Assembly (NCBI RefSeq): GCF_988242995.1
Contig: NZ_OZ547043.1
Strand: one strand, 5' to 3'
Length of the DNA stretch: 64,000 bases
The notes under the pieces: model-generated
The model's input: the letters and a program-made list of their open reading frames with translations, nothing else
The model's database searches: none
What the model was told of the DNA's origin: nothing
Position numbers and translations under genes: made by a program
Part shown: positions 60,480-60,650 of the stretch, one piece after another
Layout of the letters: each line of letters starts with the position of its first letter
Numbering within the stretch: the stretch's first letter is position 1

Positions 60480-60650
60480 ATGACTACACTGACTATTAGC
60501 AGAAAACCGAAAGGCATTTACGGCATACCACAGAAAAAGACACAGACGACACAGCAGCAGGATAAAACCACATCAGCGCATAAAGTGATACCCGGCAATC
60601 AGAACGCACCGCAGAGTCGCAAACAGAAACCCACAGGGGCGACACCGTAG
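60480..60650 (+). CDS. possible small basic protein (56 aa)
   Basis: ATG at 60480 preceded by AGAGG; low-complexity K/Q/T-rich product; below the ORF-track size cutoff; coding status unverified. Confidence 0.25.
   Translation: MTTLTISRKPKGIYGIPQKKTQTTQQQDKTTSAHKVIPGNQNAPQSRKQKPTGATP

Follow-up and report, generated by a model that had tools for sequence, protein, structure and literature searches.

An amber codon in place of Trp57 separates a conserved basic tail from the FinO domain of an island-borne ProQ/FinO-family gene

The window analyzed here (the whole 64,000-nucleotide stretch of contig NZ_OZ547043.1) contains an island that adjoins tRNA-Pro(GGG), has yejM and yejO on either side and is about 8.7 kb long. 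Its genes and features occur in the order integrase, AlpA-like HTH, ash, icd-like, DUF4222, DUF927 primase (a DNA primase by PHROG), iterons, ssb, finO-like and perC. Related modules occur in islands that also have capsid, protease and portal genes (L003), and the island family is one of satellite-like mobile elements. Beyond the tRNA gene (54339-54415) lie the two copies of a 39-nt imperfect direct repeat (79% identity), at 54521-54559 and 63248-63286. They are 8727 nt apart and are probably the attL and attR ends of the island. Clusters of iteron-like repeats (GGGACAAGT / ACTTGTCCCACC) lie just downstream of the DUF927 primase gene (59803-59950, including a 21-nt tandem pair at 59893-59934) and near the right part of the island (62096-62160); these are predicted, and probably are, replication-origin or binding sites. 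Between the island end and yejO, the minus strand of 63366-63455 has a strong 13-bp hairpin with T-tails (63370-63400), and its Rfam matches to RNAI, OrzO-P and STnc370 are sub-threshold, well below the gathering score. Divergence from E. coli LH13-b also sets in at this region.

The gene for the island-encoded single-stranded DNA-binding protein (SSB; 60019..60444, plus strand, identified by Pfam SSB and by the annotation of the LH13-b locus) is followed on the same strand by a 56-codon ORF (60480..60650), which starts with ATG at 60480 and ends with TAG at 60648-60650. Next comes an ORF for a FinO-domain protein (60657..61016), and then a gene for a PerC-family regulator (61013..61297; Pfam PerC, 111 bits), the ATG of which overlaps the FinO stop codon in the sequence ATGA. 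The peptide encoded by codons 1 to 56 is MTTLTISRKPKGIYGIPQKKTQTTQQQDKTTSAHKVIPGNQNAPQSRKQKPTGATP. A Shine-Dalgarno-like AGAGG (60465-60469) is found 10 nt ahead of the ATG, with an anti-Shine-Dalgarno pairing energy of about -5.8 kcal/mol, similar to that of neighboring genes; relatives have GGGGAAGG at the equivalent position. In all of these respects the coordinates and translation agree with the first-pass annotation, which had reported an unannotated 56-aa ORF between ssb and the FinO-domain gene. Its description of the product as K/Q/T-rich, basic and probably disordered was also apt, given that 32 of the 56 residues are T, K, Q or P, the pI is 10.8 and the net charge is about +8.6.

The two ORFs occupy a single reading frame. 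ATG 60480 and ATG 60657 are in the same frame, and just TAG-CGG-CAT lies between the ORFs, so that translation of 60480-61016 gives one unbroken frame with one internal stop (...GATP*RHMTKRQ...). What look like two genes are therefore one, interrupted by a single in-frame stop, and the AGAGG at 60465..60469 is the native ribosome-binding site of that FinO-family gene. Gene callers report the 119-aa product of 60657..61016, which begins 6 nt past the amber stop. Since this exact 119-aa protein already has a GenBank name ("ProQ/FinO family protein"), the 5' piece has been left unannotated.

The intact form of the gene is found in E. coli LH13-b (L001), the 1.5-kb counterpart of which is 99.9% identical to the window. 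RefSeq annotates it there as a single 178-aa "ProQ/FINO family protein" (WP_048230357.1), and its coding sequence of 178 codons plus stop (L001 6581..7117) corresponds exactly to window positions 60480-61016, from which it differs by one base. At the window's TAG codon (60648..60650), LH13-b has TGG, encoding Trp57. A base-by-base comparison identified position 60649, where the window has A and LH13-b has G, as the sole difference over the island, from approximately 54286 to 63370 (about 9.1 kb). The flanking chromosome on both the yejM and yejO sides has many differences from LH13-b, unlike the island, which suggests either that the mutation arose very recently or that the island was recently transferred. 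The single-base difference from an intact island argues that the mutation is very recent. The earlier proposal of an independent, unannotated gene is thus not upheld: the intact allele is annotated, and the ORF looks separate in the window because of the TGG to TAG change at 60649.

More distant comparisons gave the same picture of the gene. The 171-nt segment has matches in 328 complete E. coli genomes, and in 60 of 60 rows sampled from these it lies inside an annotated ProQ/FINO coding sequence; no genome aligned through the TAG, the best match ending just short of the mutated base. A metagenome search with a junction pattern permitting TGG, TAG, TGA or TAA found 30 contigs, all of which have TGG; 29 of them extend far enough upstream, and 28 of these have an uninterrupted, in-frame tail. 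Codon 57 is TGG or CGG in L001-L004, and tail and domain share one frame in L001, L003, L004, L009, L011-L016, L018 and 26 aligned proteins. The homologous proteins are mostly 160-185 aa long with the tail present. Contigs representing one genome per species contained an intact, 99% identical gene in E. albertii and a distant homologue in Serratia, and no others. A search of viral contigs with the 119-aa protein found no relatives, and the FinO-domain matches in a phage collection were all distant and lacked the tail. These alignments establish the intact fused form as the norm. By the same comparisons with LH13-b and the metagenomes, TGG is the ancestral codon and the amber stop has the character of a nonsense mutation of the pseudogene type, that is, a premature in-frame stop relative to a near-identical intact orthologue. 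Programmed stop-codon readthrough or recoding was considered and rejected, since TAG is limited to one allele and the codon is TGG or CGG elsewhere. Some full-length protein could still arise if UAG-C is read through at a low level or if the host has a suppressor tRNA.

Codons 60-178 (60657..61016) encode a complete folded FinO domain and a basic C-terminal helix, beginning with the internal Met60. Pfam ProQ (PF04352) matched residues 69-171 of the 178-aa reconstruction with 86.7 bits (cut-off 27). AlphaFold gave pLDDT values of 84-95 over residues 60-170, with confident helices from residue 62 (the first helix being 62-77), so that disorder ends and the fold begins near residue 62 and the amber codon sits at the boundary between tail and domain. 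Searching the PDB with a family profile recovered the N-terminal domain of ProQ (1.6e-19) and FinO (2.5e-16), as well as RocC and NMB1681. The first 26 PDB matches from Foldseek were all NMB1681, FinO, RocC or Legionella ProQ, each with a probability of 1.00, headed by 3mw6, 1dvo and 7rgt. The protein scored below the NCBIfam cut-offs for both FinO proper (NF010317, 66.5 bits against 136) and the ProQ equivalog (NF003434, 63.3 bits against 127, matching profile positions 10-118 of 205, with the C-terminal half absent), and it represents a separate FinO-domain subfamily. From what is known of the family (PMC3105414, PMC9674577), the island protein would be expected to bind structured RNAs, namely terminator hairpins carrying 3' tails, and to aid RNA-RNA pairing.

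Codons 1-56 (60480..60647) encode a conserved, basic N-terminal tail. The aligned homologues share the motifs M-x-[TK]-LTI[NS]RKPKGIY, DKTTSAHKV and TPW, the last forming TPWRHMTKRQ at the junction. In a codon alignment of ten alleles, dN/dS was 0.14-0.37 for codons 1-59, compared with 0.10-0.31 for the FinO domain; third-position changes were in excess and all indels were of whole codons. The comparison of synonymous with nonsynonymous change that the first-pass annotation had suggested thus finds a frame conserved well beyond chance, but as part of the FinO protein, and these patterns establish the tail as coding sequence under purifying selection. In the AlphaFold model of a full-length homologue, residues 1-55 have pLDDT values below 50 and no secondary structure, as expected of a disordered segment. 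Met60 varies across the family, being L, I or T in some members, which means that the codon has no dedicated role as an internal start.

Two other readings of the segment were weighed against an interrupted gene. An independent gene for a small basic protein is suggested by the ORF's own ATG, Shine-Dalgarno-like AGAGG and stop, and by its conserved frame. Essentially all relatives, however, lack this stop, and their frame continues into the FinO domain; the 56 aa scanned alone against Pfam, PHROG and NCBIfam had no family match, and the stand-alone short homologues are fragments of broken FinO genes and vary in length. We consider such a gene highly improbable. The idea that the product is a small nucleic-acid-binding protein holds to the extent that this is a real conserved coding frame and a segment of a nucleic-acid-binding protein, but not as a separate gene, the segment being residues 1-56 of a 178-aa ProQ/FINO protein. 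The first-pass annotation had offered, alternatively, that the region encodes the RNA partner of the FinO-domain protein; such a partner would be an sRNA or antisense RNA. The RNAs on which FinO-domain proteins act are usually encoded close by (PMC9977716), and there is one weak terminator-like hairpin on the minus strand (60650-60631). Against this, the Rfam scan of 57000-64000, with E values up to 10, had no match in or near the ORF; folding energies were no better than those of shuffled sequences (z-scores of -0.24 for the plus strand and -1.39 for the minus strand); the scan of the segment for promoters found no promoter-like site; and the three terminator-like sites are at chance level (2.3 +/- 1.5 expected). 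Given these results and substitutions that are codon-structured, an RNA gene at 60480-60650 is unsupported, and we hold this reading to be just as improbable as the independent small gene.

A different intergenic segment, 61735-61850 (plus strand), has a terminator-like hairpin (61808-61828) followed by a T-rich tail, a fold z-score of -2.86 and repeated GGATCATTT / AAATGATCC motifs, and it is a possible candidate for a small RNA or a protein-binding site. As an sRNA partner of the FinO protein this candidate was rejected; it is conserved only in the island's close relatives, and the more divergent islands L002-L004 lack it in the 3 kb around the FinO gene.

The possibility that the stop was made by a sequencing or assembly error arises because the window differs by a single base from its nearest complete genome. 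In a protein collection (NCBI, ENA and Logan), however, 32 contigs carry the identical 56-aa product and 34 the identical 119-aa product, and the TAG was read directly in the independent records L024 (ENA) and L027 (NCBI). The change is moreover a substitution and not a homopolymer indel. The occurrence of the same TAG in independent records leads us to reject an error, which has next to no probability. Taken with the comparison to LH13-b, these records indicate firmly that the mutation is both real and recent.

The gene has been damaged in many other ways. An independent nonsense mutation, TGA, is found at the same Trp codon in L006-L008 (junction at L006 3990-4003), in a 93%-identical allele with a tail 4 codons shorter, again 6 nt before the ATG, and L025 has TAG at Gln27. 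In L026 and L029 (~5770-6000), a deletion joins the 5' end of the integrase gene to the tail at about codon 38, with loss of most of the island, and L028 (~5770-6000) has an in-frame ssb::finO deletion fusion across a shared CAGCAGGAT. L002 has a 7-nt deletion in the FinO-family gene, L021-L023 (838-1345) have a 2-nt deletion in the CATATG at the domain ATG, and the copy in strain ABU 83972 (L017) is frameshifted. In L005 (3831-4345) and P0147, a frameshifted tail ends on ATATGA, overlapping the domain ATG. P0144, P0145, P0146, P0149 and P0151 have frameshifts at the GCAAAAACC homopolymer (an A5 run) in codons 66-67, just inside the domain (window 60677-60681); either the run is prone to slippage and the variants are real, or the Logan/ENA contigs were misassembled. 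The exact 119-aa domain sequence is kept behind four different upstream lesions. The amber allele is one of many independent lesions, a recurrent decay of an accessory island gene. There is also a lineage of 114-aa FinO-domain proteins in which the tail is in another frame throughout, and its 90%-identity clusters have 184 and 244 member sequences. In this lineage, L005 adjoins DndB, PAPS-reductase and SMC-like genes, and L021 and L022 adjoin an AlpA-like gene.

The variety of alleles also raises the possibility of a selected split gene, in which an adaptive separation-of-function allele makes the FinO domain without its tail, perhaps together with a free tail peptide, by translational coupling. 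The independent TGA at the same Trp codon in L006-L008 could be read in this way, as could the ATATGA that ends the tail ORF over the domain start in the frameshifted lineages, the location of the stop exactly at the disorder/fold boundary predicted by AlphaFold, and the preservation of the exact 119-aa domain behind four different upstream lesions. On the other hand, the lesions are scattered (the Gln27 TAG, the int::finO and ssb::finO joints, the 7-nt and 2-nt deletions, the A5 frameshifts and the ABU 83972 copy), and searching with the 119-aa product favors intact domains, which is a bias. The occurrence of two of three nonsense mutations at W57 is weakly unusual (P = 0.02-0.10, there being 23 one-step nonsense paths, 10 of them transitions); with n = 3, we do not claim this enrichment as selection. 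The window allele is also one base from an intact island, leaving no time for selection to act. We therefore consider a selected split unlikely. Slightly less likely still is the more specific proposal of a recurrent, possibly selected stop at codon 57 that splits the protein by termination-reinitiation into a basic tail peptide, set free, and a tail-less, tighter-binding, non-matchmaking FinO domain; the separate TAG and TGA changes at one Trp codon and the tail ORFs ending on the domain's ATGA are hints of this. Instead, we are confident that the 56-aa ORF represents the 5' part of the island's FinO-domain gene, orphaned by a G to A change at 60649, and that the window contains a nonsense-truncated allele (pseudogene or hypomorphic), not a new small gene or an RNA gene.

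The possible consequences of the truncation can be considered by comparison with FinO of the IncF plasmids (PDB 1DVO), to which the island protein is 34% identical over 101 aa (profile E value 2.5e-16; Foldseek rmsd 2.4 Å). In both proteins the N-terminus is a basic, disordered tail that has a Trp at its end, just ahead of the helical start of the domain, and by analogy the 119-aa remnant in the window would be the counterpart of FinO45-186. That fragment binds RNA about 20-fold more tightly than full-length FinO and lacks strand-exchange and duplexing activity (PMC3105414), activities that require the disordered N-terminus and Trp36 (PMC3105414). The tails can be paired at two motifs (LTLKRKTEG in FinO with LTISRKPKG in the island protein, and TPPKWKVKKQK with ATPWRHMTKRQ), but the similarity of the tails is not significant (p = 0.19 overall and 0.01 for the first motif alone). 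Tail homology to the FinO N-terminus, suggestive as the motifs are, is therefore not claimed, and the analogy is an architectural one. The island protein differs from FinO in scoring under the NCBIfam FinO cut-off, in that the N-terminal helix of FinO is about 25 residues longer, and in its setting: its gene is chromosomal, in an integrase/primase island next to ssb and perC and outside a tra operon, with no FinP/traJ pair identified.

The N-terminal domain of ProQ (PDB 5NB9) is the best sequence match of the island FinO domain, and the two share Pfam PF04352. ProQ is the enterobacterial global RNA chaperone. It has an N-terminal FinO domain, a linker and a Tudor-like C-terminal domain (PMC5393179). 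The island protein, unlike ProQ, has only an N-terminal tail and a short basic C-terminal helix in addition to the FinO domain, and it falls under the equivalog cut-off. In size, the 119-aa remnant is close to minimal FinO-domain proteins such as Neisseria meningitidis NMB1681 (PDB 3MW6), the top Foldseek match. FopA/PcnR, FinO-like proteins of mobile elements, may be comparable to it in kind. The allele also resembles the nonsense-truncated pseudogenes of decaying prophage-like islands, in having one premature in-frame stop relative to an otherwise identical intact orthologue and many independent lesions across strains. It is unlike them in the location of its stop at a disorder/fold boundary, 6 nt before an in-frame ATG.

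The intact gene would produce one 178-aa protein, with a basic disordered tail from residue 1 to about 59 and a FinO domain from about residue 62. With Trp57 converted from TGG to an amber stop by the G to A change, translation would still begin at the native ATG 60480 and would yield a 56-aa tail peptide without a fold of its own, which is probably inert or unstable. ATG 60657 is without a usable Shine-Dalgarno sequence, the nearest G-rich element resembling one being 13-17 nt away. In bacterial translational coupling, reinitiation works at stop-to-start distances as short as the one found here, and because the stop lies 6 nt ahead of the in-frame ATG 60657, some ribosomes may reinitiate there and make a 119-aa, tail-less FinO domain. 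With the stop at the boundary between disorder and fold, such a domain may survive as a functional one. By analogy with FinO45-186, the tail-less core would keep its ability to bind RNA hairpins and might be impaired in RNA-RNA matchmaking, so that the window allele would be either null or a binder without matchmaking activity. The overlap of the FinO-family stop codon (TGA) with the PerC start at 61013-61016 suggests translational coupling of the finO-like and perC genes, in which case the premature stop could also lower PerC translation.

The window gene is a member of a gene family that is already known and annotated, and the ORF that had been listed as unannotated and the ORF after it should be treated as a single ProQ/FINO gene with a nonsense interruption. 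The island-borne FinO subfamily carries a conserved, disordered tail (LTINRKPKGIY...TPW) that is under selection. If the codon-57 stop did create a two-product split, regulation of the island or of its helper phage would be altered. The natural tail-less alleles could serve as ready-made separation-of-function variants for the study of this protein.
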